Positions 5,045 to 45,966 of a stretch of DNA of 64,000 bases are shown one piece after another. The translations under genes were made by a program, and so were the position numbers. Origin of the DNA: Psilocybe cubensis (taxonomy: Eukaryota); the NCBI GenBank assembly GCA_017499595.2, contig CM039009.1:124001-188000 (forward strand). Direction: 5' to 3'. The first letter of the stretch is position 1. Each line of letters starts with the position of its first letter. Under the pieces are notes generated by a model that did not search any database, was not told the origin of the DNA, and saw only the letters and a program-made list of their open reading frames with translations.

Positions 5045-5211
5045 GGTCTGAACTAATAGCAAAGTTAATACACAAAGAAAGTCCGTCACGACGTACCTGG
5101 TATCCTCGGGTGATCAAGCCGAGGGGGAACGCAATGGTAGATGTCGGCGACGGCAAACGCGAGTTAGAGAGAGTAGAGTAGTGCGATGAGAATAGACGAG
5201 AGTCAAAAATA

Positions 5212-18100: not shown

Positions 18101-18770
18101 TGCGTCCGATTTGGATGCTGCTGCTCGTGCGCTCGGCATTGATGGATCCGCCACAGTACGTGGTTTGGGTGAAAAAAAGCGTCGAGGTGTAGCGGTGGCG
18201 AAGGGAAGGAGTCCGTACCTCTATCATGATACATATCAGCCACCACTGCCGTTGCCAATTCCCGGCTCCGCGTCTTCTGCAGGGTACTCGCTGGCGCAGT
18301 CACAGTCGCAATCTCAGGCGAATCTCCATACCATCATCCCAAAGCGTTCTTTCATCGTCTCACAGTCTTCGCTGTGGACTAGCGAACATTATCATCAAGG
18401 TTCTCCTCTTGACACATCACATATGCCTTCTCGGACAACGAGACTTTCGAACGTGGAAGAACATAGTGACAATCCAGTTGCACATCCCCGTGTCTCGTCC
18501 CACCCTATTGCTGTGTCTCCTCGTCCTGGATCTTCGCGCTCACACAACCCCCAGTCGGACATCAAAAGCGGTTCGGTGAGATCCATGCCCCCGCAGCTGG
18601 CCGCCTCTTCTACCTTGCCCCTGCCCGGTACTGCTGATATTTCGAGGCTAGCTATGACCCCTGAAAATATCAAACCACTTCTGGAGAACGCAAAAGAAGT
18701 ACACGCGCGTCTTGCAGAATGCATCGACGAGATTCAGAGCTTGCTTCAACGGACCACCCTCGCAGCATGA
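12126..18770 (+). CDS. Large (~2000 aa) Ser/Gly/Pro-rich hypothetical protein, 4 exons
   Basis: ATG 12126. Introns at ~12190-12238, ~13784-14071 and ~16556-16611 join three long ORFs. Repeated ENWDDDFE motifs, plus helical blocks DLKIPARISQAQ..VREFA and LAMTPENIKPLLENAKEV. Confidence 0.8.
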
Positions 18771-23514: not shown

Positions 23515-23765
23515 GACAATGTAGACACTAAGTAGCGGGCACTGTCAAGAGAGATCAATCAAAATGTATTCATTACTACCCGTGTAGGCATTTTATACAG
23601 TAATGAAGGTGCCTCATTTGTTGATAATTAGTTGTGGTGGCCCAGTCATGGTGGCCCAATCGATCACTTGAAGAATATGGAATCCGAACAAGGTGCCTAT
23701 TGGCACCAAACATGAAATGCCGATGATGGGCTAGTGTGCCGCTTAGATGCTCCCAAATCTTTTTA

Positions 23766-24176
23766 CAGCTACTTTCATATCGATAGACCTAAAATGAAAA
23801 TATACACATACAGGCGGACTTTAAACCTGTTGTAAACGAGTCATTTCGGCTATGTTTCTATTTTGAGCTGTTTTGAACAGTGGCACGATCTTCAACGATG
23901 TGTTGACATATTGCCAAAGTCGAGAAATAAATGGCCTTAAAAATGTCTTTGGAGTGCAATCTGAATGACACAAAACCTAACACCATAGCGTCACCCTATA
24001 ATCGACTCTGAAAAAATTATATCTTCCCCTAAACTTTTACGTGTTGTGTTCTATATATATACCCGCCGAATATCTTGGCATATTGCCGGACTCAAATCCA
24101 AGCTCCGCTAATTGAAATTTCATTCTCCGTGTATGTGTAAATTTTCATTTTAGGCCTATCGATATGAAAGTAGCTG
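23766..24176. mobile_element. Tc1/mariner-like MITE (411 bp)
   Basis: ~47-bp TIR CAGCTACTTTCATATCGATAG.. with 2 mismatches, flanked by TA on both sides. Confidence 0.8.
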
Positions 24177-24950
24177 TAAGTGGCTTTCCAGTGAAAATTG
24201 ACAATCAACAAGCAAGGCAAATCTCTCCCCGTTTTGTTTATTTTTGTGTCAACTTCCCGTTGGGGATACCCACCCATATACACAGCGAGCCATTTTTTTA
24301 CTTACTCATTAGAGATGGAAAACCTGGCCAATCCATGAAGCTGTCGAGTCAGATTTACAGACAAAGATCTACATTTCCACCCTAAACCTTGCACTTAGTT
24401 TCTCCCACATTACCAATGTTCCCAACATCCCAATCCAACTAACCAAAACGGCCAGTACTGTGACAACCACAATCCTGTTCACCCCAGATCCCATCCGCTC
24501 CGTATAATAAACCCCGACCAGTACCGGTATCATGTTGACATCATAAAAAGTGCGGGTAGATTACAAAGCATTGTAAACCCAATTAAATATTTTTTTATTC
24601 GAAATTCTCACACTGCGTTACAACCCTCTTGAAATGTTGTGAGAAACCGGAAATATTGCAGTGTGAATAAATTAATTTGAGGTTTACAATATTTTTGGGT
24701 ATTGCAATATGAAAGAATAAGCGGCTAGTTTATAATCTCAACAAATTACTGTATGAGATGACAAGGAATCAAGAGCGTTATAAAACATTGCGAGAATTTA
24801 TTGGGTTTCTCAATGATAAGGAGGATTGAATGGGATTTTGAGGCACCCAGCAGATTATAATAGAACAAATTTATTTATTCAGTAATAAAAGTACAGGCAT
24901 GGTATGTAAAGCAGGGCAGAGCAGAGCAATAATTACAGCAATGAGAGACA

Positions 24951-27074
24951 TCAGAATTTCTTAGCCTTACGTTTGATAGGTTGGCGCGTTCCCTTGGCCT
25001 GGGTCCTGGCCTTTTTAGCTGGTGGTTCTTCACCGTCGGCGGCGGTGGCGTCAGAATTGGGAGCAGGAACGGCATCAGCGTTGGGAGTAGGCAGGGCCTC
25101 ATCCCCGGTCTCGAAGGGGTCTGAAGGTGGTGCCTGTAGCTAATATGAGCCCTAGATAGAGAATGTAATAAATGCACTCACGTCTTTACGCTTTGGACCA
25201 GGGCGGCGTGGCGCCGCTTTCCTCTTTGCAGGGAGCTAATCATAATATTAGTGTAATGAACCAATCTCGAGTGAAAACGCACCTTGATCTTGATCGGGGC
25301 TGGTGGGGAAGGGGAGCGTTCGTTTTCGGAAGAAAGAGAGGAAGAATCCTCGGAAGGGAGGTCAGGGGGGGATTCTGAAGGGATCCTAATCGCGTTTAAT
25401 GCCATTCGGCGACGGGAGACTTGTTGAGGCACAGGTTCCGCCAGTGAAACAGCTGCAAATGCTTTAGCTAGCGCTGGTGCAGACCCATTATCTGGGGCGG
25501 GGTGGGAGGAGGGTGCGCGTGCTTGAGGAGATGCAGGTGCGGGTGTGGGTACACGAGCAGGTTCGGGTGTGGGTGCACGAGGGGGTGCGGGTGCAGGTGC
25601 ACGAGCAGGTGCACGAGCAGGTGCAGGTGCTTGAGCCGCAGCGGCCATTTGAGCTTTACGCCGTTCTACCGGGTCTCTGAGGCGTCCGTCGCGTGCACTA
25701 CCTTCCAAAGGGGACGACTTCTTGTCATGATCCACGGGCTCAGATGGCAAGATAATGTTCCTAGAAATTCATTAGCATAAAATCAAGCGCGTAAGGCACG
25801 CTTACTCTTGCCACCAAGCCACAGTCTCCTTGGCCCACGTATCGTCATCAGAAAGACCCGACAGAAGCGTCAGAATAGATGCGTAGAGGCGGTCGGCCTT
25901 CAAAATGCTCTTCGCCTCAGGCCAAGTCTTACCGCTGATTGCAATGACAAGCTTTGAAGGAGGTTAGCACTGACAGACTACTGACAATGTCCACTTACCA
26001 TCATGCAATAATAACATATGAGTCTTATCGTTAGTTCATATACTTTGTGAATCTGTCCTTTGCTGGCACGTCCTCCAAGCCTGTTGGCCTCGCCTACAAG
26101 CATACGTTGGACAAACTAGAGTGCCAATATGTATCAATGACATGTCAAAACATAAAAAAAAACTTACTTGGGGACCCAAGGGTGGTCGAAACAGACCTTG
26201 GACCTCGTCGTCTATGTCAAATGGGATGTCAGGGTCATACAAGCAAGCTGGCCAATCCAGCGTGTCTCCATTTTTGGTATCGGCTTCGAGTGATTCACAT
26301 CGCACGCTATCCACAAATAAATCAACTCATATTCGCAGAAAATAACAAGCCGACTTACAGAATTTCACGCGCATTGAGGTCGGCGAGCTCGGCGAACTTG
26401 ACACGCGGGATTAAAAGAGCGGCGTATGCAGGGTGTTTATAGCCCCGGTTCACCCTGGCACAGGCCAGTTTGTAGGCCTGTAGGTCAAGTGGGACCCTCA
26501 GATCAAATGGGATCAACTCCGGGATCAACTTATGTGCCTTGAAGAGATCGTCGGATCGCGAATGAGCTGCAGCACTCGATACCTTACAAGTATGGTTAGT
26601 CGATCTGTACATGCGACCTCACAAAATTCTTACCAAATCAATGACTTTGCCAATCAAGGCAGAATTGTCCTCGCACTTCTTGATGATATCCATAAGGTCG
26701 GGCATCAAGTCCTGCATCTCATAGAAGGACCAGAGCTTGGGTTGTAAACTAATATATGCATAAATCAATGCCCCAGGAAAAAAAAGGCGCATATACTTAC
26801 TCCAATATTTGTTGTCGGGTCATACCATCCGTTATATGGTTGGCCAGAAACTCGAGACCCTCTTGGATGACGCTCTTTACGTTCATAAATGGGTCGATGG
26901 ACTGGTGAATCCATCTCGCGCCCTTCAGAGTGTCTGCTAGTTCGGGGCATCTACAAATAACGTTAGCGGTTAACGCGCACGGGGACGGGGGAGGGGGGGG
27001 ATTCAGGCTTACTCGAGTTCTTTGTTGGTGTCGATAGCCGTGAGGGCTTTTTCAATCTGGGTCGGGGTGAGCAT
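24951..27074 (-). CDS. Plavaka cargo gene 1: DUF6698-like protein with Pro/Ala-rich tail, multi-exon
   Basis: Spliced translation MLTPTQIEK..GARWIHQSIDPF..WPACLYDPDIPFD..GLFR..WAKETVAWWQE..basic C-terminus KRKAKKF*. Many short GT..AG introns; exon limits are approximate. Confidence 0.65.
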
Positions 27075-27379
27075 GGTGGTGGATGGTGGTGGTACGGGAA
27101 GAAAAGGGATGAAAAAAACTCCCTTCCGCATATACCGAGCGCAGTGGTTATGTAATGGACACCTGAGGAGGTACAGATGTCCGCGCTATTCCGCGCCATT
27201 GCCATAACTAGCGGGCGAAGGAGGCGCGATCGCCATCGACAGCGAGCTGTCAGAGGATAAAAATAGCCCACCGCGAATCACCATAGCCAGGAGGTAGACA
27301 CCCAAGACGCCCCAGGTATACCCGTGCGTTGAAGCTTGTGGCCAGGGCTTTCGACGACGAGAAGGGGTGTATACGCGCA

Positions 27380-27872
27380 CCGAACGAACCCCCAGGTATC
27401 TCCGTGGGTTGAAGGGGGCTGGTAGTCCGTAGCAGCGACAGGAGCACCCTACAGAGTACAGAATTGCCATAGTCAAGCAGCCGCACCCAACGAACCCTCA
27501 GGTATTTCCGTGGGTTGAAGGGTGTGAGCACCAACTTGACCAGCCTACAGACTACGGAATCACCATAGTCAGCAGACTGCCACCAAACTCCGAGACGAAC
27601 AACCGCCAGACTACAGAAATACCATAGTCAAGCAGCCGCACCCAACGAACCCCCAGGTATTTCCGTGGGTTGAAGGGTGTGGGCACCGATTTGAGCAGCC
27701 TACAGACTACGGAATCACCGTAGTCAGCAGACTGCCACCCAACGAACCCCCAGGTATTTCCATGGGTTGAAGGGTGTGGGCACCGACTTGAGCAGCCTAC
27801 AGACTACGGAATCACCGTAGTCAGCAGACTGCCACCCAACGAACCCCCAGGTATTTCCGTGGGTTGAAGGGT
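27380..27872. repeat. Tandem repeat, ~97-bp unit, ~5 partial or complete copies
   Basis: Recurring ccaacgaacccccaggtatttccgtgggttgaaggg and agcctacagactacggaatcacc. Confidence 0.88.
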
Positions 27873-28004
27873 GGTAGTGGTGCGGAAGTCAACAGAGCCA
27901 ACAAACGGAACCCTACCCAAATTCAGATTCCGCCTGATGGCAATTTCAAACTCCGACACGCGTGGTGATCTCAACACGTTCCTGCGTCATTGGTTCTTCT
28001 TCGC

Positions 28005-28160
28005 TACCCAGGCTCATTGCTCGGGCAGCCTCACTACCCAGGCTCATTGCTCGGGCAGTACGCGCAAACTACCCAGGCTCATTGCTAGGGCAGAACGCGA
28101 GACACTACCCAGGCTCATTGCTAGGGCAGAACGCTTAAACTACCCAGGCTCATTGCCAGG
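28005..28160 (+). repeat. Array of 5 CCAGGCTCATTGC motifs upstream of cargo gene 2
   Basis: Five exact 13-mers at ~30-36 bp spacing. Confidence 0.9.
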
Positions 28161-28208
28161 GCAGTACGCACAGATAAATTGGAATTCCTGCTCCCCCGAC
28201 TGTCCATA

Positions 28209-31200
28209 ATGCCCCCGTATGTATCTTACAATATCGAGGTGTATTTGGTTGCTAATTCTACGTACAACAGACTACGCCCTCCTTTGACTGGTCCCAGGGC
28301 TCCGTCTTCCTACAAGACGGTATAATTTACTACTCTCCCAATTGTAACCGACCAGTCCGTATCAAGGCCCCAGAGCGGAATCACCCCCACCCATTCCCCG
28401 AACGTGCAGAGCCAGATCCCACTTCTGTCAAGCATCCTGTCTGGTGGACAGACACCTTTGGGTGGATGTCCTTCATACCGCTCAACCCATCCTTTATCTC
28501 CGACCCCTTCGACACCTTTACCTGGCAGCCTGAGCTGGATGTAACTCCTAGCTATAATACTCCACCCGGTCCCACTCTCTACCAGCTCGAAATTCATACT
28601 ATAAAGCATTGGCGGTTTAAGGAACAATGTTTACTGGAAGCTGCGCACAAAATGAAGCTATGGTACCACGTACCAGCCAGTCAACCACCCCCGCCTTCCA
28701 TCTTTAAATACGATGAGCCCTACACATCGAAAGAAGAAGCTTATCGCCAGATTAAATTGGCGCGAGATTGGTTTGCCGTATGGATGGGATTCTTTGCCTA
28801 TTTCGCTGCGTGTGCCAAATATGACAAGTATTGTGCAGGAAAGATGGTGAGAGAGAAGGGCGAGTTACTACCCCGATGGTATACCAGGCTGCTCGAGGAG
28901 GTTCCGATGTTACAGCGATCCTGGTTGGACGGGCTTTTGACATCGCCAGCGTGTGTATTCTCACCCAACACTCAGCGTGCAGGGATAGTTATTCCCTGGT
29001 ATGAATATGACAATCGGAGGCCCGAGATACAGTTCTTCCTGGACCAGCAGATTCCTGTTTTCTTTCCATGGTGTGCCATCGCAGAACAGGCCATCATAAA
29101 CAACCCCACCCTTCGCTATCTTGAGCCTCCTGCAAACCTTGTTCGGGATGCCCTTGAGAAGTTTCTGAACCGATTCCCCAGTGTTCCTCTCGCTGGCCTA
29201 ATCCTTAGGTCCTACTTTCGATTTCATGATCGCCCGCTGCACTCCACCAAACATATATTGAGAATGGAACACAGTACGTCGTTGGTCACGAAATATATGT
29301 ATGAAAAATTTGCCTCGCAAACCGACAAGGTCAAGGCGGCTATGGAGGAGAACCAGGTGGAGGCCACGGTTGCAGAATTGAGGGAGATAGTAAGCCGAGC
29401 CATGGACATGGACCTCGCAGAGGCCGAGCGAGCCATAGCAAATCTCCCCACTCACGATTGGATGGACAAAGGTGACTACCACCGGAGAGGAGAGTTGTAC
29501 GACCACGTCTCGATATTCTTGGAGAAACGCGAGAGAAACCAGCGCTTTATCATTGCGACTGAGACCGAGGACGCAAAGATCAAAAGGCTTCAAAGAGAGG
29601 AGGCCCTCCCGGGGTACAACACATCGGTCTATAGGTGGAAAAGTGTCACGACGCCGGGGGGGAAGGAATTATACATGCGAGTTCGCCTCCTTCGATCAAA
29701 GCACGAGAGACTGTTCGCAAAGGTGCCTCCCTCTCAACGAACATACAATGCAGTCTCAAACGAGTGGGACATTTTTGATGAAGTGGATTTGCCACGAAAA
29801 TATTTGCAATTTGTGGACCCCCCTCCTAGGAAGGACGGTTATATCTACGACTATCCTATCCAAGCCGCCCGCATCAATCCCCAGTCCATCATCCCCGACA
29901 ACGATGTACCCCGTGTGGAATCCGTTCCCGTCATCCCAGAACCCTGTGTAGACTCTTCCTCGGGTGGTGCGACTTCCCCTCATGAACCTCAGTACGAAAC
30001 ATTCCCCATGGACACGGAGGAATTTCAGGAGGGGCCTTCCCAGCCTCCGGTACATCGTCCAGAGCCGGGCCCCTCCACCATGGATACCGACACTGATGAA
30101 GCTTCGAAAATCCACGATTACGATTGGGACACCGCCGACCTCATCTCCAACTTGCGATACAGCTATGGATTCGTAGCCTCTGTAGTCCCGAAGAAGGAGG
30201 ATAAGACACCGGAAGGCTGGAAACACGCCTGTCAACACTTTGGGTTTAGGAAGGATGGGGCAGAACAGTTTGTCTCAAACACGGATCGTCAACTCATCTG
30301 TCAGTTTCATGACGGTTTGATGGGGTCAACTGACCGTCCGCTCCCTCAAGACATTCACGATCTCCACCCGCAAAATTACCTATCCCTTCAAGTTTTAGGG
30401 AATCTCAGCCTCATCCATCGGCCCATCCCAAATCTATTTGTTTTCGCTCATCACGACATACGTGCACCTCAGGAAGAGTCCGACAGAATGTCTGCTGATT
30501 GGAGTATTGGAGTCGAAACCCCAGAGGCTGCTTTATATGTCTTACGAGTCTTCCAGTCCCATCCTGGGCATACAGTTGTCAGTGTGGCACACAGACTTTT
30601 GTCCAAAGGAGTGCAGTTTCGAACTCTTGTCGGGCGTAAAAATGTGGTTCAGGTGCATCAACCCTACAAGGAAGTTACCTTTTACCGCAAAGTCAGCTAC
30701 AAGTTTACCAACGACGACTATGAGTCCTCGATGCTGGCCTGTCGGCAGATACTGGACCAACAACGCGGTCGTGCAGCGCTACTCATGGGTGGAATAGTAG
30801 GACGAATCGCCAAAGAGTATCTGAGCACAGAGTCTGTTCTCCAGGGCCCATCAGTGGAATTGCTGAGAAATGGACGCGGATATGTCGCTAATCCAGAGGC
30901 CGAGTTGCTGGCTTACTGCGATGACGGGCTTACAGAACACGATATTGCGATTATTATCGGGTCGTATTCTCTCATGACGGGTAAGTGTTCACTACATTTA
31001 ACTGATCGCTCTATTTAATGTCGTTTTTAGATTTTAAAAATCAGGTCGGAGTCAAGTCTTGGTTTCCTCCCCCGGCGGTATGGAATGAAATCGACAGGAA
31101 TGGGATAGGATGGCTGGAATGGACTGAACGCAACGAGTACTGGTACCAGACTAGGCTGGAATTAATTCGAAATGGCAAAGCGCAACCTTTAACGCTTCAA

Positions 31201-31317
31201 GACTGGAAGAGCCTTCTCAAAAATAAGCCAGTCCGTGTTCTAAGGGAATCGGTGCGAGCTCGATCAGCGGCATTTGTCCATGAACATATCCCCGTAACCA
31301 GGAATCCTCGTAGATAG
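28209..31317 (+). CDS. Plavaka cargo gene 2: ~1000-aa protein of unknown function (3 exons)
   Basis: 850-aa ORF extendable upstream to acceptor 28270 (YYSPNC). RGRAALLMGGIVGRIA, and a last exon SWFPPPAVW..W..RNEYWYQTRL after an intron at ~30981-31030. The start codon is tentative. Confidence 0.75.
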
Positions 31318-31648
31318 GTAGCACATTTTTCTTGTTTCTTCATTCACGGATCTACACCACTACTCACAGTGTATTTTTGCCTTTGTACATACTACAAAAC
31401 AAATTTTATGTATACTATCTATATTTCTTCGTACAGACTATTGGTCAGATATCATGTATACCACGGAAAAAATTGTTTGGACCTGCATCGAAACATGTGT
31501 GAATCAATTCTGAGCCCAAAAAACATAAAAAAAACATGAGATTGCTTACAGTAAGCCGGTTAGGCCAATCAAAACTCCGCTAAGTTTTGAACTCCGACAC
31601 CGCGCCCTATCACGCCTGAGGTTGATGTCTGCACTCTCCTTATTCGCT

Positions 31649-31937
31649 CTACCCAGGCTCATTGCTCGGGTCAGAACGAATCGGTGGCTCGCTATCCAGG
31701 CTCATTGCCGGGATAAGAGCTTCCTATCCACTGTCCAGGCTCATTGCTAGGACAAGGATTTTCTACCCCCTATCCAGGCTCATTGCTGGGATAAGGGTGT
31801 CGTTCGCCTGCCCAGGCTCATTGCTTGGGCAAGGATATCCCCCCTATCCAGGCTCATTGCTGGGATAAGGGTATCGTTACTCTGCCCAGGCTCATTGCTT
31901 GGGCAAGGATTTTTTACTCCCTATCCAGGCTCATTGC
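31649..31937 (+). repeat. Array of 8 CCAGGCTCATTGC motifs upstream of the transposase ATG
   Basis: Eight exact 13-mers at ~35-43 bp spacing. Confidence 0.9.
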
Positions 31938-31968
31938 GTGGATAGTTGTACTTCAGCAGGCCGTAATT

Positions 31969-34900
31969 ATGTCCGACGAAAAAAGACCCTGCTTAGGGTG
32001 CCATAAACTCTTCGTACCAGGTCGCTCCTTGAAGCAGCATACCAACAAATGTAAAAAATATCCTGCTGCAATGAGCAAGGTCCTGAAGGGGTTCCAGGAA
32101 AACTTCAGCAGGCAGAATCAGAACAGTAATGTTGCCAGTGGTTCTTCGCACCAGGCAACCCTTAATAATGAGCCCGGGCCTATGGACGTTGATGTCCATC
32201 ATGAGTATCTCGATGTGGATATGGTACCACCTCCAATGCCCCCTGCGCCTCCACCTAAATCACCAACACCACCACCACATCCCCCGACACCACCACCTCC
32301 CATTGAACGGCCCAGAGGACTTCCTCCACGCGTTATTAGATTGCCACAGCGCTTCCGAGACGAGGTCCCACCCGAACCTCCTCTAATTATACCACCAGTC
32401 GTGGAGGAGGAACCACCTCAGCCTCAGGAACCTCCATCTGTGGAGAGTCTGTATCGAACACCAATGAATGGCTATGGGATATTTCGAGAGTATACCTATG
32501 GTCCCCCTTCTATTACTCCTGACGAACATTTCACACTGTCATCAGTGTCCGATTCTCCAAATATTGCCAAAGACCCAGCCGACTCTTTGAGAAAGGCGTC
32601 AGAGGGAACACCAATGGCCCTACCTTCGGATTGGTCCTTGGATTCTGAGCCAAAAGACGACAAGAGCTTGCTATTCAAAAATCGTTCTACTCAACTTATC
32701 ATGTCTTGGTTTTACAACGGCCACGGTACTAAATCCTACGCTGATACCGACAAATTGATTCACCAAGTCGTACTGGACCCGGATTTTGACCCCAAGGACT
32801 TTGATTCCTCCTTTTCTACTGCTCGAGAGGCAGCGCGTCTGGACGAAATCTCCACCCAAAAAAATTCTACAGATCCTACTTTGTCAGAAGTGTGTCGACC
32901 GGAAGCTGGGTGGATCAAGGGCAGCTTTTCAATACCAGTGCCATGCGACGGTTTCATATTCGATTCGGAAGAGGAGGCTCCTCAATTTGTTGTTGAAAAC
33001 GTCATGTATCGAAAACCTCTAGAAGTTATCAAACAGGCCTTTGCAGAATGCACCTCTGAGACGTATACGACCATACCGTACAGAGAATTTTGGCGTCCCT
33101 CACCCGACGAACCACCCGAACGCTTATTCTCAGAGTCCTACGTGGCGGACATTTTCAATGAAGAGTATGAAAAGATCAAGTCAGAGCCACGCACAGGTCC
33201 CCACAGACACCTGGAGCCCTTTGTCGTTGGTATCGGGATTTTTTCAGATTCTACCCACCTGACCAGTTTTGGCGATGCTTCTATATGGCCGATCCTTATG
33301 TATATCCTCAACCAGTCAAAATACACCAGAGGGAAACCTAAAGAATTCGCTGCGCACCATATTGCGTATATCCCTAAAGTAAGTTTGTATTGACTGGCAT
33401 GTACTATTCATATTAACGTTTGGGTCATAGCTCACAGACACTTTTCAAGATTGGCATCAGCGACAGTTTGGCAAAGCTGCGACATCTGAAATGCTCACCC
33501 ATATGAGACGCGACGTCAATACAGGCGTCTGGGGGCTATTACTTGATGAGGATGTCAAACGAGCGTATGCTGAAGGGGAGGCCGTAGAACTGGCCGACAG
33601 AGTATGTCGAGCTATGTATCTCCGTTTTATTTTTAGTTCAAATGACTACCCCGAAAAGTAAGTCAACATCTACTCGCTATTTCGATTGATAACTAATGTA
33701 CAAGCAGAATGCTGCAGTCCTGCTGCAAGTGTCGCGGCACTTGCTTGTGTCCACGTTGTTTAATTCAGACTATGAATGTCCCAAAGGTTGGATCAAAGAT
33801 GGATATGCGAAACCGGCTCAAGCTAGCTCGCGTTGACAGCGAAACTCGTCAATTTGACATCGAAACTGCCCGTAAAGCATTGTTCTTGGGGAAAAAGGTT
33901 AACAGCAAGGCGGTTAATGGCTTGCTGCAACAGACCTCTGCTTTTCCAACTCGGGTATATTTTTATTTCCTCATATCTACGTATTTTGTCTAAGAATATT
34001 ACATAGAACGCTTTTTCCAAGGCTTTATTTGAATATGGCTTCAACTTTTATCGGATGTTTACTGTCGACTTCATGCACAAAGTGGAACTGGGTGTCTGGA
34101 AGGCCCTATTTAGTCACCTACTCCGGATTCTTTATACCTCTAGCAACCAGAACGCCATTGCAACTCTGAACGAAAGGTATTGTCGTGATATCTCGATTCT
34201 TACTCAAACTAACTATAGATTTAGATACCGCCAAGTCTCCCCTTTCGGCCTCACAACTATCCGACGTTTTGCTAGGAATGCTTCAGATATGAAGAAACTG
34301 GCAGCACGGGATTTTGAAGATCTCCTTCAGGTAGGCCTCAATTGCGTGTGATGTTTGATTTTAATTGTTAATGATTCCATAATAGTGCTCTATACCAGTC
34401 TTTGAGGGCTTGTTGCCAGAACCTGCACACAATAAAATTATTCAAAACCTCTTGTTTGAAATGGCGACATGGCACGCCCTAGCCAAGCTTCAACTTCACA
34501 CCGATACCACTCTGGACGAGTTGGGGAATTCGTGTACTCGGTTATGTGATCTCCTTCGTCAGTTCCAAAAGGAGGTTTGTAGTCAGTACGCCACTCGCGA
34601 GCTTCCATCAGAAACAGCCGCTAGAGGAAGAAGACAGGCAGCCAAGGCCAAAAAGGCAGCGAGTGCGGGTCTGCCAGTACCTCCGACTCAACCCAATGAA
34701 CCCAAGACCCGCACGTTCAATATGCAAACGTACAAATTGCATTCCCTTCCCGATTACGTCGATTCCATTCGCCAATTTGGCACCACTGACGGCACGAGCA
34801 CTCAGATGGGCGAAAGCGAGCACAAGAGAGCGAAACTCTTCTACAAACGGGTCAAGAAAGGTGATCATATTCGAGGTATCGCCAAACACATCTACCGAGA

Positions 34901-36137
34901 ACGTGTGGTACACCGCACTAGCCGTGTCGAGATGCGCAAGCTGCTGCGTGAGGACAGGGAGTTACTGGAGCCCACTCCTCCTGATTTACATTATCACATC
35001 TCATCAGACGTGCGTCGAAAGTTAGATATACTACCCTGGATGTCACAAAACCAAAACGATCCGGCGACAAGGGTAAGCCGGATTTTTCGCTTGTTTTTAT
35101 ATACTCAATGTCGTATTTAGGACTTTATGCTTCGTCTCAAAACTCACCTTTATGCCCGCTTATCAGGGGCAAACAAATTCAGTGATAGCATTGGTACCCA
35201 TGAGCGACTCCAAATCACAATACTCGGTGACCGAATTTACGAACATCAGGTTCTACGCATCAACTATACTTCGTATGATATGCGTCGAATACAAGATACC
35301 TTGAAGCCAAACTCTTCCCGATGTGACATCATGGTACTCGCTAGCAACAAAGGTGCAGATCAGCAGGTTCATCCTTATTGGTATGCCCGTATCATTGGAA
35401 TCTACCACGCCAATGTGGTAATATCTACCCCTGATGATTACTACCGTGCCTCCAAGCACAAAGTGGATTTTCTTCATGTCCGATGGCTGGGTGTTTGTGA
35501 AGATTGCCATTACGGTTGGAAATATAGAAGGCTTCCACAGTTGGCGTTTGGTGATATCAATGACTCTGCGTCGTTTGGTTTTGTGGACCCATCCCTCGTA
35601 CTTCGTGCAACCCATTTGATCCCTCGCTTCATTCTTGGAAAAATACCGACTCTCGGCCCATCTGTAGCTTATAGAAGCAAAGAAAATAATGAAGGGGAAG
35701 AATGGGAGAGATATTATGTCAATTTGTGAGTACATTTAGTCACTTCTTACCTTTTACTAATTTTTTACAGTTTTGTGGATCGCGACATGGTCATGCTGTA
35801 CAGAGGGGGTGGAGTTGGCCACGCTAGCACGCGAGCCGCTACCGATTCTCTTAGGCAAGACCCACGTGCAGACGACATTGCCTCTCGCAAAAAACGCCGC
35901 GAGGCACATGAAGCTCCCGATCCTGATCTGGAACCAGATGGGGCCTCAGACCAGGAGCAAGACGCTCAGGACCAGGCTGAAGTGGCACCTGAAAACAGCG
36001 CCGATTCTGATGACAATGAAGACGACAGCGACCAGCATACCAATTCTGAAGAGGAGGAGGAGGAGGAGGAGGAGGAGGAAAGCGACGAGGATGAGGACCG
36101 GGGTGACCTCGATGAACTCGGGTTCGCTGAATACTAA
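31969..36137 (+). CDS. Plavaka transposase, ~8 exons
   Basis: N-terminal Zn finger CLGC..H..KC. Then IFSDSTHLTSFG..WP..NQSKYTRGKP..HHIAYIP, DYPEK, CLCPRC, DFMH.VELGVWK, TYKLHSLPDY..FGTTD..STQMGESEH, HPYWYARIIGIYH and FGFVDP, with an acidic tail. Confidence 0.92.
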
Positions 36138-36357
36138 CTGTAGCTTTATGTGAGTCTGTCGTTGATTCTCTTGTACCTCTACTAACACCTTTTTAGATGT
36201 ATCCTTGTCTTGGCGAGTAATACACAATACTTTTCTTGATTTTCGCGTGATTCGGTAAGGAAATGTATTGATATTTAACTGAAATTTTATTGTAACATCC
36301 CTATACATCGCTGTACGCCCTTTGGGCTCTACTCTCTCATTGTGCAACTACGTATGT

Positions 36358-36469
36358 GTGCCTTACCCCCCTCACATCAACCCTCATACACCACCTTAGC
36401 TGCAGCCCGACACGTGCCTTACCCCCCTCACATCAACCCTCATACACCACCTTAGCTGCAGCCCGACAC
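36358..36469. repeat. Direct tandem duplication, 56 bp x2
   Basis: gtgccttacccccctcacatcaaccctcatacaccaccttagctgcagcccgacac occurs twice. Confidence 0.9.
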
Positions 36470-36552
36470 GATACCGCCCTTATATTTCAGCGATAAGGAC
36501 AGCACCGAGCATCGCCCCCCAACCCAGTTCCGCAGCCTATTTCGACCTGGAC

Positions 36553-36990
36553 GTGCCTGGCGCGCGCCACGCGTGTGCTGCGTATGCGTGCGCCACGCGT
36601 TTGAGGCGTATGCGTGCGCCACGCGTGTGCTGCGTATGCGCGCGCCACGCGTGTGTTGCGTATTGCGCGCGCCACGCGTTTGATGCGCGCGCCACGCGTT
36701 TGATGCGTATGCGCGCGCCGCGCGTTTGATGCGCGCGCCACGCGTTTGATGCGCGCGCCACGCGTTTGATGCGCGCACCACGCGTTTGATGCGCGCACCA
36801 CGCGTTTGATGCGCGCACCACGCGTTTGATGCGCGCACCACGCGTTTGATGCGCGCACCACGCGTTTGATGCGCGCACCACGCGTTTGATGCGCGCGCCA
36901 CGCGTGTGATGCGTATGCGCGCGCCACGCGTGTGTTGCGTATGCGCGCGCCACGCGTGTGTTGCGTATGCGCGCGCCACGCGTGTGCGTG
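36553..36990. repeat. CpG-rich minisatellite, ~20-26-bp unit gcgcgc(a/g)ccacgcgtttgat, ~20 copies
   Basis: Directly visible tandem array. Confidence 0.95.
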
Positions 36991-37118
36991 TTCGTCCAGA
37001 TACAAAGAGGCGTCGATACGGGGAGGGAGGGGTATACATGGATGTGTTTTGAAAAATAAAACTTGATTTCATTGTACACGCGTCACGGTAAACTCAGAGT
37101 GCCTGTCGAACGGGCCCT

Positions 37119-37637
37119 TTATTCCATCATCTCAACGTCCTGATCATCCCCCTCCCCATCGCGCATCTCGACGTCGCTGTCTTCGACGGTCCCCGAGTCC
37201 TCGATACGATTTTCGACTGCGACAACCTGTTCCTCCCACTCTCAAATTTCGCCGTGGGTCGAAACGACGGGTTCGGTGTCGACTCGCCCGGTCGTGGGCT
37301 CTTCTACGCTGACAACGATCTCGACCTTGTTGTCGGTATCGACGTTGACGCCGATTTTTGCGTGCCCGTTGCGGCCATCGACGGCGACGTTGAGCCTGAG
37401 GCCGTCGCGATCGATCGCGAGGCCGAATTGTACTCCTTGGGGTGCAAAAAAAAATTAACAGTGAGTACTTACTTTGAATATTGAAGACTCACCTTGCTCA
37501 TCCATTTGTCGTCTTCCGTTAACTCTTGTTATGCCGTTAGAAAGCTGTGGTGACTCGCTGGCGCGCTGTGGCGGGTTTGGTGGTGGTGGTGGTGGTGGTG
37601 GTGGTGGTGGTAGTTGAAAAGAAGCACGCGCCGCCAT
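37119..37637 (-). pseudogene. Plavaka cargo gene 4: small Pro-rich/acidic protein, 2 exons, premature stop
   Basis: MAARASFQLPPPP..DEQG | VQFGLAIDRDGLRLNVAVDG..HGEI*EWEEQ..VEMME*. In-frame TGA at 37242-37244. Confidence 0.5.
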
Positions 37638-39231
37638 CGTTGATGACTGCGGCGCGCTTTTCCACGCCCGTTTTGGTCATCGTCGTCGACGATGAGCTTG
37701 ATATCGACGAATTTTGAACGGATTAATGTAGTTATTACATGTATACGTAGAGAAATATAACGCTTACCGTGATTGGAACTTCGTTTGAGCGATCGTATGT
37801 TATATTTAACACACGCGCCGGGCCAAGACATACGGCCCCTATGTTGCCCGGTTATGTAATGTCCGGTCAACCGGACTTGTCGTAAACATACGAAAATTCT
37901 TACTTGATTTTGCAGGGTAAAACAAATAATTGTTTGCATATTGTAAAGCTAATAAAAATATTACTTAACATTGTAAACCGGGCCCCAAAATTTGGGTGCA
38001 TTTGTAAGACCAAAAATTTATTGTATTGGATTACATTGCTTTGTAATCTACTGTCTGTTTAGTTGATGGATATACAGCTGGATATATGTGTGCCGTGCCA
38101 GGAATCCCCAATCCTTCTTGGCCCATGCAGCTGAAGCATAATTACATACTATTGCATATGGGATGGTGAAAATACGAATGTGCACCAGATCACATAGAAG
38201 ATGGTGTGGAAGTTGAATCCAGGAGAAAGGAAGAAGTATTGATTTCTCGTGAAAATGAATTTTTGAAGAGATGAGGACCACTGTTGTGCAGCGGCTAGGG
38301 ATGTAGAAGAGATGATGATTGAGGCGCCTAGTACAATATACCCTCGAGTTGGTGTAAGGTTTACAAGCTCTGATGACTGGATGTAGGTGAAATTGACTCC
38401 CAATGTGTACGCAATTGCGTACCCGAGGGGCGCATCAAACGACGGAATGTCATTCGACACGTCACGATAAATGGGTAAGAATAAAACCTTCCCGCCGACA
38501 CAGCTAATAAAGATATATGCCGCCAAAGAGATGACTGAAAGTTCAATGCTCCTATTAAGTTGAGCTTGTGATGATGGGCGAATGAAACGCGTTAAAGCAG
38601 TGGTGATCGTATCAGGTGAGTGTTGCTTGCAAAAACGCATACCAAGGTGCAGACAATCCATCATCATGAGATAGGTGACATATACAACGGGGCCAGAGAG
38701 GTAAGGGTACACCCAACCGGAGTCAGGGCGTCCAAACACAGTGCTCCATAAAGAAGTGAGAATAATCACCTGTAGTGACTACTATTATGTATCATACCCC
38801 GGCAGTTTCCCAAGTGCCATGATATATCCTGGTGGGGAGTATCCCAACTGCCCAAGATGATGTATCAGAGGGTCTGTGGGGCGGTATAATCAGTGCCGGG
38901 GATAGTGATGGGTGCCGGGGGCATCAAAAAGCCAAACAACGCAGGAAATGGCCCCGCAGGGAAAATTTTTCAGTTTTATACACTCTCATGGGCATTTTGG
39001 CCACAAAAACTTGATAATTATATCTATAAATAAACCTACTACCTAATGCCGCCGTATGCGCTCAAATGTATGGGGAGGGCGGGGTGGATGGCTCTGGGGT
39101 CGTTTGGATGACGAGTTTTAAAATAGATGACTCCTCGCAACATGATGTCATTATGATTCCATCAGATTTGATTGCATCGGATGAAGTCCTATAAATAATT
39201 CATGACTATTATTGAATGACTAAAGTAAAAC

Positions 39232-40129: not shown

Positions 40130-43100
40130 CTACAGGGGCTCTTCCGTCTCATTCTCAAATTCTTCCTCCTCGTCTTCATCTGGAGGTACCTGATCAACCT
40201 GATCAACCTCATCTCCCTCATCGTCGTTGTCATCATCATCATCATTCTCTGTAATCTTGTCACTGAAAGGTGCTGCCCATAGCCTCTGAAAATGGTTTGC
40301 TAGAGATGTCTGGATTTCTGCTTGGGATTTCGCAAAGGCAGAGATTCCTTCTGCCAAATCCTTCCGAGTGCCTGGAAGCGCCGATTGCCGTTCTACCCAC
40401 CATGCCGACCTGTGCTTCAAGAACATTAACATTCTCCGCATTTCCTCCTTCAAAAGTAACACCTCCTCCTTGGCACGCATAACCCGAGCACGACTCTTCG
40501 CCCACTCTACTCGGAGAATGTTGTCATGGTCTTCTTCCGTTCGAACACCCACTGTAACCGTCCATATCCAAGATAATGTTCTTCGGGTCTGTCCTGTACC
40601 ATCTCTTCTATTCCTCTGCTGATTCACAAGGTCGATACTGTCATCTTCATCTACTTCAATGTTTGAGGGCTTGTGCCCATCTTCGTATATGCCTCGACGT
40701 CCTACATGAGGGCGTAATTGGTCTGGATCCTGGTATCCCCTCACATCCTTGTCCTCCAACACCTGGTATGTGTTTTCCCAATCACCTTCTCCTGCTAATG
40801 CCAGATGTGCAACTCGTGCAGACCGATACTTTGAGGCTGCAAAACGCGCTCGTACGTGGACACGATCAATTATTGTAGTCAATTGTGTGCCGTCCCGCTG
40901 TCCTCGGATGTTTTTGTTCTTGAAATCAATCATTCTGGATTTGATAATAAGAATTTGCCTGATCGAGGCCAGCGAATTGGACATCTGCGCAAAACGAAGC
41001 TCTTTCTCGATATTGGCGAGGCCAGGAGTACAGATGCGTGATTGAAACGGTTCAGGAATAAATGAGGGAAGATATAGAATGGCATCTTAAGCGTAGCTAA
41101 TCTTAGTCGTAATTGGATGATCTGCTTGATACTGTAGGATTCCTGGAATATAGACTGGCAATAGTTGCTCCCATGCCCGAATACGAGTTGCGAGAACATT
41201 TCGCTGTTCGGTCAAAGATCCTGCCTGCCGGATTGTTGATTGAGGTCCTACCCCCTTTGCCAGACGTCTAACACGTCGTCTATCACATCCTGTAAGCATA
41301 TGATCCTAGAGGTTGCAGAAAAACTTACTGGGCCTCTTCCAGCTCCAATCCAAGGGCGATAAAGATTGAAGATGTTGTGGCATGCGGGAATGAGCCACCC
41401 TGTGCCAAAAATTCGGCTTCCTTTTCTGCAAGATCTTTCTTGACCTGTGCCTCGCTCAATGCTAAACCACCCATGAGTATTGAAATTATTGGGAATTGAG
41501 AACGTGGAAGACTCACTTATACTTGGCATATAGTAGGGGTTTTTTTTCTTGTTCTTCGGAAACTCCTCTAATTCCCACTCAACACACATTTTCTCCCAAA
41601 CGTCTATCAGCTGGGGATTCTCCTTTTTTACAGATTCGGTCAGACCTCGATGCCCTTCCACCTGAGTGTTTCAATCTGCAACCGCCCGACGGTATCTTTT
41701 AAGTAGAGTTGTACCCATGGATGTGTACTTCAACCAATTCCAAAATCCAAAGTGGTCGTCAAGCGTGTCTTGTCTAGAACCAGGACCCATCGTTTTCGTC
41801 GCATTTCCAACAGCATTATGTGGGCCCCATACCCGTTCAGGGCATTCTCCATCGGATTGACCAGCCCCAGGGATAAGATTCAAAGAAAAGACGTCGTGGT
41901 TGGCATGGGATTGTTTATGCATCGATGCATGCAGTTTTGGGATTGCGGGCGTAAACTGCATGTCGGACGAAGGTTTAATTTCCGGTGGCCAATCTTCCTG
42001 CATTCTTTTCAGAAGGTTGAGGAACCACTGGCAGGCAATATCGTAGCTTGCGAGAATAGATATGACAGATAGCGCTTTCAGAATTGTCCCAAAGATATAA
42101 TCCATGTTGGCGTAACTATTATTATAGATTGTGAGTCAAGTAACCTGCAGTTGATAGCGTTAACATACCGTTCACCCTTATGAAGATTTCCAACTCCCAA
42201 AATCATTTCTGATCTGCCGCATACACCCATTCCCACTCCAGTATATCTCAGACCCTTTGAAAACTTGCTATTTGCCTTTGCAAGGGCCTGGAATCCCACA
42301 CAGGTACTGATCTATCTCAAATTGTTAGTCTTGTTCCTATGGTTTCTATGGGATGATATTCTTACGTCTTTCTCATTCGCTCTACTCTTTACATACTCCT
42401 CGTATTTTGTTCGGTGGATCATGTATGCGAGACCCAAGCCAAGCCCAGGATCCTGTGAATAATTTGATACCATTTGGTTTTTTAATCGGAAATTGGCGTC
42501 GAGACAAATCATTACAGTATATAAAAACCTAGCCAGCAGTCAGAAATATCATTCTATAAAGTTTAAATGACTTACTTCATGTTTTCCGGGGCATCTTTCC
42601 AGTCATTTGGCAAGTTAATGCCAGGGTGTGGACATGATGGACACTTTACCATCAACTCTCCAGGTAAAGTTCCTACAGCTCCTCGACTATCGTGGCCCCG
42701 CCCCGCCCACTTCAACATTTGCAAATGCCGCCACTGAAGTACCATTCTCATGAGTGCACGATAACGAGATTTTGGCACATCAATGCCCAGATTTGTTGTT
42801 GACTTCTCGAGACAGCGATAAAAATCATAAGTAGAGGCCTTTGTTGTGAGAGCGAGTCGGTGTAGATGGCGAAGAAGGTCAAATGTTGCACAGGTCTTTG
42901 TGGAAAGCTGTGATGCCGGATATATGCGTCGACGAAGAAGTTGGATATGTTGTGGAATCGCCCGTGAGCACCCACAATATTGAACTTTGCAGGAATGGAT
43001 GCCGTTTGTATGAAGTATCAACATTTTGGAGTGGCAGGCAATGGGATTGTCGCAGTATGCACCAGCATGGTTTAGCTGAATGACCAAACCTAGCTCCTTG

Positions 43101-43895
43101 AGTGAGATGTCCACAAAATTTGACCCGGTCCACCTCTGAAACAAAGAAAAAAAATTAATTGTCATATCAGAATAGGAATGCATAAGTACGTACTTCGATT
43201 CGATGGAATAGATTAAGCCTGTGTCGTCTAACGCAACATTCACAACACGTAAGATCGGGCGACAAGCACTCCCTACATCTGTGCTCTGCTTGGCCTGGTA
43301 TTTCTTCTTCTCGAGCAACACAATCTGGACATGATGTAAGATGGCGAAAATCGCCCCGACCCGACCACCGGATAATCTCGTCGAGGTATGTCTGTCGATG
43401 CAACGTATACCATACCACATTCGGATGTTTCTAGATATATACAATAAACATTGGTTAGTGTAAATTCAAAATGATATACATTGCTTTTAGTCTTACTGAA
43501 ACAAGACTTCGTTTCGCCTTATTCCGGGAAGCAGTAGTGTTGTTGTTGTTGTTAACCGTCACAGTTGGCGTTGACTGAGGCCCAGAACCCTGATTCCCAC
43601 TTTCTGTACCATCCGCCATTTCCTCCTCGTCCTCGTTGTTCATGAAATCGCCTTCAACAGCGAGGTCATAGCCAACACCATCCGGCATCAAAGCATATGT
43701 GTTGTCATCTTGAGGCGCCCAAGAGGTTTCATCGTCCCATGCCCCAGCCGATAGAACGGTAGCATAATATAACCTGCCCCCCATAGTGCCCTCGCTCGAC
43801 CAAATTGTTGTGAAGGTGTCCGGTAATGGTATTGGGTCCCGATATATTTCTGCCAAGCTTGCTTCCCCGGCTCGGCGTCTTTTGCGTGCATTCAT
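40130..43895 (-). pseudogene. KDZ transposase with CxC2 domain, multi-exon, two in-frame stops
   Basis: HTNGIH..V.YCGC, QLLRRRIYPAS..TCATF, CPSCPHPGINLP, DANFRLK, KGERY, SYDIACQW, IPKLH, DGECPERVW, GPGSRQDTLDDHFGFWNW, and RVEWAKSRAR..EEV.LL.EEMRR. Stops: TGA at 41671-73 and TAA at 41087-89. Confidence 0.92.
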
Positions 43896-44350
43896 AATAG
43901 CACAATATAGCGGGCCCTGGCGACCCCTGGCGACCCTCGCGATGTTGTGATTTGCGTGATATTGAGGCGGTTAATACCACCTTTAAGCTTTTTAACGAGT
44001 GATTCAAATTAAGTGATAACCCAAATCAGACTTAAAAAAAGCGCATTACGTCACGTGGCTCGACGTGTACCGCGTGACTCAATCAACAATTTGATTATGT
44101 CCATTGTTCAATGTGCTGCAATTCAACTTCGATGATCTAATAGGTATCAAACCAAGGTGTGTGCTGCAGTACCAATCCCCCACTATTCAAACCATTTCAA
44201 CACCCCAGTGGCTTAGGAATATTCGAGCCCGGACATACACTGAGCCACTGGGTCTGTTCTCCCATTTCTGTTTCTACTCCCCTTCCTTGCCGCTGTTGTT
44301 CTACCCATTGTTCACCATTTCAAATATCACACAGGTCTTCCTTTCTGATC

Positions 44351-45966
44351 ATGATGTCTACGACTCTTACTCTGCCTACCAACTTCTCGGCTGCGGTGGC
44401 TTTGGAGCAATGGGCAAACTTGTATAGTCATGCAGATAGCCTGTTCAGCCTTTCACCGCTCACATCACCAGAGCATACTCCGCCTTCATCCCCTATTCTT
44501 CCTTCTAATGTTGATCTCCAATCGCATGGCAGAATCACATCCGACGCGTTTGTCAACGATGGCTGTCAGTTGAATCCGTCACCATTGCCAGTACCACTTT
44601 TTCCACACTCCTCGCCTTCATGTGTTCCTGCAGTACAACCCCAACCATCATTGCCGGCGAGGGCCTCAGGGAACGTCTCCACGATGGAGGGTCCATCCTC
44701 CAACCCCAAGCTGCCAGTAAAAGACGCAAAGAAATCCAAACCGCCCCATCGCGCAGCTCGCCAGCATGCTGCTGCAAATGCTGCTCGAGCGCATCAACGA
44801 GACAAGGCCAAAGGCGGGCAAATCCTTGAGCCAGCTGTTCGTGAAGCCCCTCATCGGAAATATGTCAAGGGAGCAAAACAAATCAACACCACATTTGTAA
44901 CAGAATCCGCACGCGTTGCTCGAACAGGCTTCATCGGAATCAACGACCGCTCCAGATCAAAGAGGGTGTACCATCTAGAGGAGGTTACAGGAGTCAATTC
45001 AGAGCTCCAGTTCAAGCTTGTCAAGTGGGATGGAAGGTATGCAAATGTTTCATTACCCTTTTTTGTACTGAAAGAAAATTCATAGACAACCGATGTTCAT
45101 CTCGGACTCAGATGGACGCGCTCTCGTTATTCTGGCGGGATATCCGGAGGACCAGGGCTGGCCTATCCTCATGGAACTAGCTGCAGACTCCCTGGAGGTG
45201 GCACGAAGCCGTTTTGTCCCGCCCAAGTCCGAGAATCGTCGAGGAACGTTCGACTCTCTACACTGCGGTGTCTCCTTCGGCGGCGGTCAAACTTCGCCCT
45301 CCAATCTTCGGAACGAGAAGGTCAACAAGGTGATATTGGAATGGCTCTGCAACCTCGAACCCTTCAAGCGGTTGGCAGGATTTGCCTCATGTACGTTTTG
45401 ACATTATTTTGTTTAACCATACTGATCATTCTAATTTTACAGCTGCTATGCACACCTGGGCTAACGATCTATTCTGTGCATATGCAGAAAATCTGAAAGA
45501 ACTCCACAAAGACCCTGAGCTGAAGCGTGTCTTCCCCAACAGTATCTTTTCCGCGGCTACATTCAACATGGGACCTTGTACAGTATGCACTAAGCACAAG
45601 GACTTCTCCAACTTGCCATACGGATACTGCGCGGTGACTGCACTTGGCGATTTTGATCCAAGGCAGGGGGGTCATCTTATACTCTGGGAGTTAGGACTTG
45701 TTGTTGAGTTTCCCCCCGGATCTACGATTTTGCTTCCCTCCGCGCTGATATCCCATTCTAACACCGCCATCTCCCAGCATGAGAAACGCTACTCCTTTAC
45801 CCAATACACCGCAGGAGGTCTTTTCCGTTGGGTGGCTCACGGATGCAGAACAAAGGACAAATATCTGGCTACCCTCACTCCGGACCGCCTTGCATCGTAT
45901 GTTCAAGAGGAGTCAGTAAGATGGGTAAAAGGTTTGAAACTCATACCTATTGTTCATGGCATGTAG
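44351..45966 (+). CDS. TET: TET/JBP-family 2-oxoglutarate/Fe(II) dioxygenase (fungal transposon-linked type), 3 exons
   Basis: Introns 45037-45085 and 45391-45442. Motifs RRGTF..GVSFGGGQ..P.NL, HKDFSN (HxD), GGHLILWELGLVVEFPPGSTILLPSA..HSN (distal His) and RYSFTQY (2OG-binding Arg). No stops seen. Confidence 0.92.

Follow-up and report, generated by a model that had tools for sequence, protein, structure and literature searches.

A 13.5-kb PlavakaB DNA transposon of Psilocybe cubensis and the accessory genes that it carries

In a 64,000-nucleotide stretch of the Psilocybe cubensis genome (contig CM039009.1 of assembly GCA_017499595.2, positions 124,001 to 188,000 of the forward strand; hereafter the window, to whose numbering all coordinates refer), the segment from 24539 to 38068 very probably constitutes one intact copy of a PlavakaB transposon in which the transposase gene is accompanied by integral accessory genes. 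The element is a cut-and-paste DNA transposon of the EnSpm/CACTA-Transib clade CMCT and appears to belong to the family PlavakaB-1_PsiCub. A preliminary description, made from the sequence alone, had proposed a full-length Plavaka element of 13.5 kb at this place, with a DUF6698-like gene, a gene for a protein of about 1000 amino acids (aa) and a small gene as its cargo, and had considered these to be accessory genes of the element rather than genes of the host. The analysis presented here brings forward two protein families, DUF6698 and the family of the 1008-aa protein, as recurrent partners of CMCT transposases, and the latter family is under clear purifying selection.

The extent of the element follows from its ends and from an empty site. 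On the left, CATCA (24539-24543) is followed by a 12-nt spacer and then by GTAGATTACAAAGCA (24556-24570); on the right, the reverse complement of this arrangement consists of TGCTTTGTAATCTAC (38037-38051), a 12-nt spacer and TGATG (38064-38068). The gapped pattern CATCA-N12-GTAGATTACAAAGCA, which had been put forward in the preliminary description, has exactly two matches in the 64-kb window, one per strand, at an expectation of 0.00 derived from 100 shuffles, and its spacer is indeed unconserved: Read by eye, the spacers of the two ends agree at 4 of 12 positions and differ at the other 8. According to the repeat finder, the inverted-repeat arms reach 57 nt with a complementarity of 70%. The dinucleotide GA stands once on either side of the element, a match which, taken alone, is weak evidence as it is expected by chance in 1 of 16 cases. 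Public reads and contigs were mapped onto positions 24000-38600 to test these boundaries. Three DNA data sets connect 24536 with 38069 and pass over 13,532 nt, with two letters that could be assigned to either flank; this joint is supported by 24 reads in the raw-read run X13, by 32 reads in the raw-read run X14 and by one 15,997-nt contig in X1. Because these sequences are joined with a single GA, they represent a precise empty site, which fixes both boundaries to the base and confirms the proposed length as well as the proposed 2-bp target-site duplication. The insertion is polymorphic among the samples and has made a duplication of 2 bp. Loose read ends at 24539 and 38068 lead into sequence of low consensus (0.41-0.46), which points to many different flanks, and a self-comparison of the 64-kb window revealed no second copy of the element therein.

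The termini and the duplication length satisfy the definition of PlavakaB families in the available parts of the work by Kojima, namely termini of the form 5'-CATCA..TGATG-3' and duplications of 2 or 3 bp (Kojima 2025, Biology 14:1741, PMC12730594). Data S1 of this article contains a PlavakaB-1_PsiCub consensus of 13,577 characters, compared with 13,530 bp here; over the consensus start, to which the comparison extended, the first ~400 letters are identical to the window from 24539, and no difference is known from this part of the source. In the truncated text of the consensus, a 32-nt string from the right end of the element has no match. Family consensus, end motif and duplication length have thus been in print since December 2025 (Kojima 2025, PMC12730594). 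The main-text parts of the same article describe no genes in Plavaka elements besides the transposase and TET/JBP, and literature searches for DUF6698, PF20414 and PF28437 gave nothing, the Plavaka literature being represented in part; the accessory gene set of the element therefore appears to be undescribed.

All four genes were modeled with database proteins as guides and by exact-word mapping. The four proteins of the window map in full length to the P. cubensis models JR316_0012055 to JR316_0012058, and the exact-word maps to P0053, P0036 and P0086 cover the full protein lengths. For the transposase, the preliminary description had seen no obvious stop, a point that has to be corrected: The last exon (35772-36134) ends with ...GFAEY and is directly followed by a stop codon at 36135-36137. 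The Plavaka family PF18759 matches exon 1 in the frame 31795-33393 with E 6.4e-11 and the close copy P0061 with E 5.5e-20 (72.3 bits at a cut-off of 26.3), and D508, C526/C529 and D615/H618/E621 are invariant in 11 transposases. We take D508, D615 and E621, with C526/C529 between them, to be the catalytic set. A sequence/profile search with P0086 returned no PDB chain. In the annotated model, translation begins at 32071; a further ATG in the same frame is present upstream, at 31969, and a start at this position would provide the transposase with an extra Cys/His-rich N-terminus.

Among the cargo genes, the one described as DUF6698-like can now be placed more firmly, as its 555-aa product is a true member of the family: It matches Pfam DUF6698 (PF20414) with E 6.4e-25 and 88.5 bits (cut-off 23.7) over profile positions 3-205 of 206, hence over nearly the whole domain, and its Atlas neighbors are DUF6698 clusters of Basidiomycota. 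In a search of PDB chains, its database counterpart P0053 gave a match of E 0.034 that falls on a low-complexity stretch. The gene of about 1000 codons was recovered as a three-exon gene for 1008 aa. All 25 listed matches of its product carry the precomputed database label PF28437.1, and the Pfam release used gave no family for P0036, P0011 and P0008 of the 1008-aa family; the PF28437 model is probably newer than this release. The small gene is likewise present, although in a shortened form: An in-frame TGA at 37242-37244, where other copies encode arginine, cuts the product to 112 aa as compared to 150-153 aa elsewhere. Its relatives are confined to P. cubensis, with 2 real matches among 1.84 billion representatives, and it is probably a young, species-restricted passenger of doubtful function.

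Gene order and read depth in P. cubensis support the view that the repeated unit includes each of the three cargo genes. In the annotated proteome, the listed cluster members form nine sets of neighboring locus tags with the same relative gene order, where a tag that is absent from a set lies outside these lists. All four genes are seen at three of the nine sets (0012055-58, 0009311-14, 0009883-87), three genes at five sets (0011380-83, 0007786/87/89, 0005132-34/36, 0008588-91/93, 0009749-51) and two genes at one set (0006478/80); beyond them there are a diverged pair (0009345, 0009347) and a lone DUF6698 gene (0013303). The read depth in X13/X14 is 327/295 for the DUF6698 gene, 329/303 for the 1008-aa gene and 341/323 for the transposase. 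With a mean of 327 (X13) and 294 (X14), the interior of the element exceeds the right flank (31 and 44) by factors of ~10.5 and 6.6, and there are roughly 7-10 near-identical copies per genome. The depth of the small gene is lower, ~153 in X13 and 125 in X14; a simple proline-codon repeat is located there, and no inference is drawn from this value.

Three further observations concern the copies as such. Differences between reads and the present copy (24000-38600) are dominated by C>T and G>A, with 236 of the 388 differing places in X13 and 208 of the 356 in X14, while the reverse changes A>G and T>C were counted at 55 and 57 places, respectively; cytosine-to-thymine change seems to have eroded the other copies, and this copy seems to be near the unmutated form. 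Moreover, 81-87 reads per run exit the element after 24708 into one consistent sequence (agreement 0.98-0.99), which suggests a derivative or sister family that shares with the element no more than its leftmost 170 bp (24539-24708). Rarer joints of internal deletions (34064 to 34918, 32002 to 32293) were also found in the reads.

Beyond P. cubensis, 79 loci were obtained when metagenome contigs were searched with the 1008-aa family; they contain several near-identical pairs and were not dereplicated. Plavaka transposases were detected by tblastn with the transposase exons of the element and by a hidden Markov model (HMM) of 11 Plavaka transposases, and were confirmed by Pfam on the large frames. 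A Plavaka transposase lies within 10 kb of the 1008-aa relative in 12 of the 79 loci, with tblastn and HMM agreeing on the same 12; when only loci with flanks of 3 kb or more are counted, the share is 12 of 51 if one such flank is required and 10 of 17 if both are. In 7 further loci the neighbor is a Transposase_21 gene of EnSpm type (L019, L071 and L078 by Pfam; L006, L024, L042 and L076 added by BLASTP clustering). For DUF6698, 295 frames were scanned, made up of the first 150 of 327 frames of 75-169 aa and of 145 frames of 80-169 aa from L056, L057, L061 and L068. In this set, Pfam identified DUF6698 exons in 3 of the 9 Plavaka loci scanned (L028, L057, L068), and in L068 they are positioned between the 1008-aa relative and the transposase. 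A tblastn search of the 79 loci with the DUF6698 and small-gene exons of the element gave no match; since Pfam found DUF6698 in three loci, this blank is a matter of sensitivity. The co-occurrence with Plavaka transposases, which the preliminary description had suggested as a check, is therefore given for the 1008-aa family and for DUF6698, both of which recur beside these transposases at protein identities of 24-38%, while the small gene was found only in P. cubensis. Element ends of the form CATC..GATG were sought in 22 metagenome loci, where none was clear and only internal inverted duplications were present.

Some of these loci harbor additional recurrent frames. Near-threshold matches to an OTT_1508-like deaminase (L058:4745-5143, E 9.7e-6; L061:12808-13173, E 2.3e-5; L043:2996-3370, E 0.021) stay short of the cut-off; the deaminase-like frame sits after a large frame of 500-800 aa, and this frame family recurs beside 1008-aa relatives in 7-10 loci. 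In the Transposase_21 loci L006, L019, L042 and L076/L078, a recurrent gene precedes the 1008-aa relative. This preceding gene is covered by two frame families, from 12 and 8 loci, neither of which has a Pfam match.

For the 1008-aa protein, each of the 13 pairs of relatives (13 of 13) has a ratio of nonsynonymous to synonymous substitution rates (dN/dS) between 0.19 and 0.35, calculated from windows filtered at 40% identity, a filter that may lower dN slightly; this pattern indicates clear purifying selection. An AlphaFold model of the protein based on 80 rows reached a predicted local distance difference test score (pLDDT) of 75 and a predicted template modeling score (pTM) of 0.75, and comprises two domains (11-524 and 633-1005) that are connected by a disordered linker. 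An earlier model from 22 rows was poor (pLDDT 49.6), which made its Foldseek search meaningless. The conserved residues of the family are mostly arginine and aspartate (R844, R855, D826, D894, D895) with no histidine among them, and the DUF6698 protein lacks an HxD/HxE motif. The lack of a conserved histidine in the 1008-aa family argues against a TET/JBP-type oxygenase; its conserved Arg/Asp residues would be compatible with a phosphate- or metal-binding site. Sequence and profile searches against PDB chains gave no match with alignment A2 and only one of E 0.66 with alignment A3, and the Atlas search gave no usable match.

Two arrays of the same palindromic unit are located ahead of the 1008-aa gene (array a) and of the transposase gene (array b). 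Their 13-nt core CCAGGCTCATTGC occurs 13 times at an expectation of 0.08, in all cases on the plus strand, with 5 occurrences in array a and 8 in array b. Within the palindrome stem two positions covary (CG:8/UA:5 and AU:5/GC:3 with 5 unpaired), a score that is reached by 0 of 500 shuffles, and array b folds far better than its shuffles (z -6.93). In related loci, tandem arrays of other sequences are likewise found just upstream of the 1008-aa homologue. A different kind of repeat, the minisatellite at 36534-37012, consists of ~24 units, is rich in ACGCGT and CACGCGTG palindromes, and varies in length among reads.

How the parts of the element might work together can be outlined as follows. 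By analogy with CACTA/EnSpm-type elements, the DDE transposase would excise and reinsert the unit, presumably by cutting at the CATCA ends and recognizing the 15-nt block beyond the 12-nt spacer. The proteins of the DUF6698 and 1008-aa genes would serve the element either as transposition cofactors or in protection from silencing, two roles that we consider about equally probable, and the 13 palindromic units are putative sites of binding or regulation, perhaps by a protein that the element itself encodes. In maize, the CACTA element En/Spm encodes a transposase, TnpD, and an end-binding protein, TnpA. The element described here resembles it in its related transposase clade, in a second element-encoded protein and in short motifs near the ends, here TTTACAAT: This subterminal motif has 7 matches in the window, 4 of them within 150 bp of the ends, a weak enrichment over the 3.29 expected, as 4 of 100 shuffles reach 7.

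Closer in descent are the TET/JBP-bearing PlavakaB elements of Agaricus bisporus and Gymnopus confluens, which, in the available parts of their description, share the transposase lineage, the CATCA..TGATG ends and the presence of an extra gene inside (Kojima 2025, PMC12730594). They differ in the nature of the cargo: Among the 72 frames of at least 60 aa in the element, none matches Tet_JBP at E <= 0.1 and the two largest have no match at E <= 0.01, and a different set of three genes is found instead. TET/JBP is also the only accessory gene of basidiomycete Plavaka elements known to the accessible portion of a preprint on red algae (bioRxiv 10.1101/2025.02.11.637652). The same portion describes giant Plavaka elements with three accessory genes, PAG1-3, and with tandem arrays of inverted repeats beside an accessory gene, so that a transposase, three accessory genes and inverted-repeat arrays are common to both systems. 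The likeness does not extend to domain content, at least for PAG2, which has a PF01555 (N6-adenine methylase) and a PF00856 (SET) domain; neither has a match among the frames of the element. We propose, tentatively and as one possibility, that DUF6698 and PF28437 form a conserved accessory module of Plavaka/EnSpm-type transposons across Agaricomycetes, which would correspond in fungi to the PAG cassette of red algae. In this case, the 1008-aa protein would be an enzyme or nucleic-acid binder of undescribed fold (Arg/Asp sites R844, R855, D894, D895) that acts on element DNA via the palindrome arrays for transposition or anti-silencing.

Several results weigh against an intact element with a conserved accessory module. 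The exons rest on database gene models and open frames; the presumed RNA run X15 placed 2 contigs on 24000-38600, both of them in the left flank, and the upstream transposase ATG at 31969 is absent from database models. The small gene is truncated not only here, since 4 of the 8 annotated copies of its cluster have 108-112 aa. Of the 44 metagenome loci whose flanks total 5 kb or more, near-identical pairs included, only 18 show a CMCT transposase, and the remaining loci are unexplained; neighborhood in repeat-rich DNA can also arise by nesting. The structure prediction envisaged in the preliminary description succeeded insofar as a good model of the 1008-aa protein was obtained and failed to provide a fold match: Foldseek found none in the PDB at E <= 0.001 and none in BFVD, and the best Z of VIA-align against 48,161 chains was 4.7, with helical bundles that cover residues 81-241 only, and 3.2 in a second look. 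As fold searches hardly reach the C-terminal domain, a new fold is not claimed. Finally, the covariation in the palindromes is suggestive only and may reflect the duplication history of just 13 related units, and array a folds no better than its shuffles (z -0.13).

The distribution of the 1008-aa family also admits an explanation that does not bind it to Plavaka. Together with DUF6698 or other companions, the gene might form a self-contained cassette that passes from one transposon lineage to another in the manner of TET/JBP genes, and that confers a general advantage such as anti-silencing rather than acting as a Plavaka-specific transposition factor. We regard this as a serious possibility that nonetheless falls clearly short of probable. 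It would account for the variable position of the gene, which is downstream, upstream or divergent relative to the transposase, and such mobility is described for other accessory genes in the accessible parts of two sources (Kojima 2025, PMC12730594; Bostrychia preprint, bioRxiv 10.1101/2025.02.11.637652). Moreover, Plavaka- and EnSpm-linked (Transposase_21) members interleave on the family tree with 5 changes, a number that 305 of 500 shuffles do as well, and this interleaving fits a moving cassette better than strict co-descent. The tree was, however, computed with FastTree and has long branches that were flagged as unsafe; Plavaka and EnSpm are related, so that a shared ancestral partner is also possible; and no cassette boundaries were found.

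It is improbable, by contrast, that the cargo consists of captured host genes that are passengers of this family and useless to the element. The small gene would fit this description, being restricted to P. cubensis and truncated here and in about half of its annotated copies, and some 1008-aa relatives have host genes within 10 kb (fatty-acid synthase, Chs7, HeLo, kinases). The same contigs hold transposase genes, however, and the one with the fatty-acid synthase also holds a Plavaka transposase (L068/L072). Neither the recurrence of two cargo families with Plavaka transposases at such low identity nor the low dN/dS of the 1008-aa family would be expected of useless passengers, and a syntenic single-copy host version of the cargo genes was not identified in the loci surveyed. 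The situation that would have refuted the preliminary description, with homologues mainly at single-copy syntenic positions away from Plavaka transposases, was thus not encountered there. The repeated gene order, the equal depth and the recurrence beside Plavaka transposases consequently uphold the earlier view that the cargo is integral. The idea that the 13.5 kb are a nest of two or more elements, so that the CATCA ends would mobilize only some of the four genes, might draw on the repeat-rich window and on the internally rearranged and deleted forms among the reads, but is close to refuted, since the entire 13,530 bp are missing together from the empty site, the depth is uniform across the large genes, the order is the same at nine annotated places, the published consensus (as far as available) has nearly the same length, and the repeat finder detected no second pair of long inverted repeats inside.

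A single PlavakaB element with integral accessory genes is thus the reading on which we build. The present copy has its three large genes intact, belongs to a set of about 7-10 copies and is polymorphic between samples, and P. cubensis can be grown in culture; in combination, these properties would open the role of transposon accessory proteins to experimental study in a fungus. For genome annotation, the practical consequence is that a DUF6698 or PF28437 gene in a mushroom genome should probably be assigned to a transposon and not to the host.

Table 1. Position of the element, its ends, genes and internal repeats in the window.
Feature	Position	Strand	Basis or remark
Whole element, 13,530 bp	24539..38068	+	Empty-site joint 24536->38069; first ~400 letters equal those of published consensus
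Target-site duplication GA, left copy	24537..24538	.	Joint with 2 letters fitting both sides
Target-site duplication GA, right copy	38069..38070	.	Joint with 2 letters fitting both sides
Left terminal inverted repeat: CATCA, 12-nt unconserved spacer, 15-nt identical block, weaker similarity	24539..24595	+	
Right terminal inverted repeat	38012..38068	-	Repeat finder and gapped pattern
DUF6698 gene, 10 exons, 555 aa, basic Pro/Ala-rich tail	24951..27074 (coding 27074 down to 24954)	-	Exon map versus P0053
97/155-nt tandem repeats between the divergent DUF6698 and 1008-aa genes	27275..27884	.	Copy-number joints among reads
Array a: 5 units with invariant core CCAGGCTCATTGC	28001..28164	+	Ends 45 nt before the 1008-aa ATG
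1008-aa gene, exons 28209-28238, 28271-30979, 31030-31314, then stop	28209..31317	+	Precomputed label PF28437
Array b: 8 units, same 23-bp imperfect palindrome	31646..31945	+	Ends 24 nt before the first in-frame transposase ATG
Plavaka transposase gene, 8 exons, open throughout	31969..36137	+	Pfam Plavaka; exon map versus P0086
Minisatellite, G+C-rich, with 20/26-nt units, flanked by the 3' ends of the transposase and small genes	36534..37012	.	Repeat finder
Small orphan gene, 2 exons	37119..37637 (37637 down to 37119)	-	Truncated here, 112 aa

At the insertion point, removal of the element restores a 177-aa open frame on the minus strand (24372-24538 and 38071-38434); neither part of it has a Pfam family, and the element may have inserted into an exon. 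Immediately to the left, at 23763-24179, two 50-nt inverted repeats with a complementarity of 96% are separated by 317 nt; they have the appearance of a small non-autonomous element with multiple copies, and many reads break there at 24130 and 24179. Farther to the left, three long G+C-rich frames of 549, 863 and 752 aa on the plus strand (12190-18767) are of Ser/Gly/Pro-rich low complexity, with no Pfam family and no match in the fetched metagenome loci; they probably represent one host gene for a disordered protein. A Gypsy-type polyprotein on the minus strand (2-5113; gag, protease, reverse transcriptase, RNase H) is open over 1704 aa and runs off the window start. To the right of the element, a second DNA transposon occupies 41674-45963, with a KDZ transposase (E 8.4e-29) and a CxC2 match (E 1.9e-36) on the minus strand, and a divergently placed frame shows a weak Tet_JBP match (E 1.1e-5, below the cut-off).

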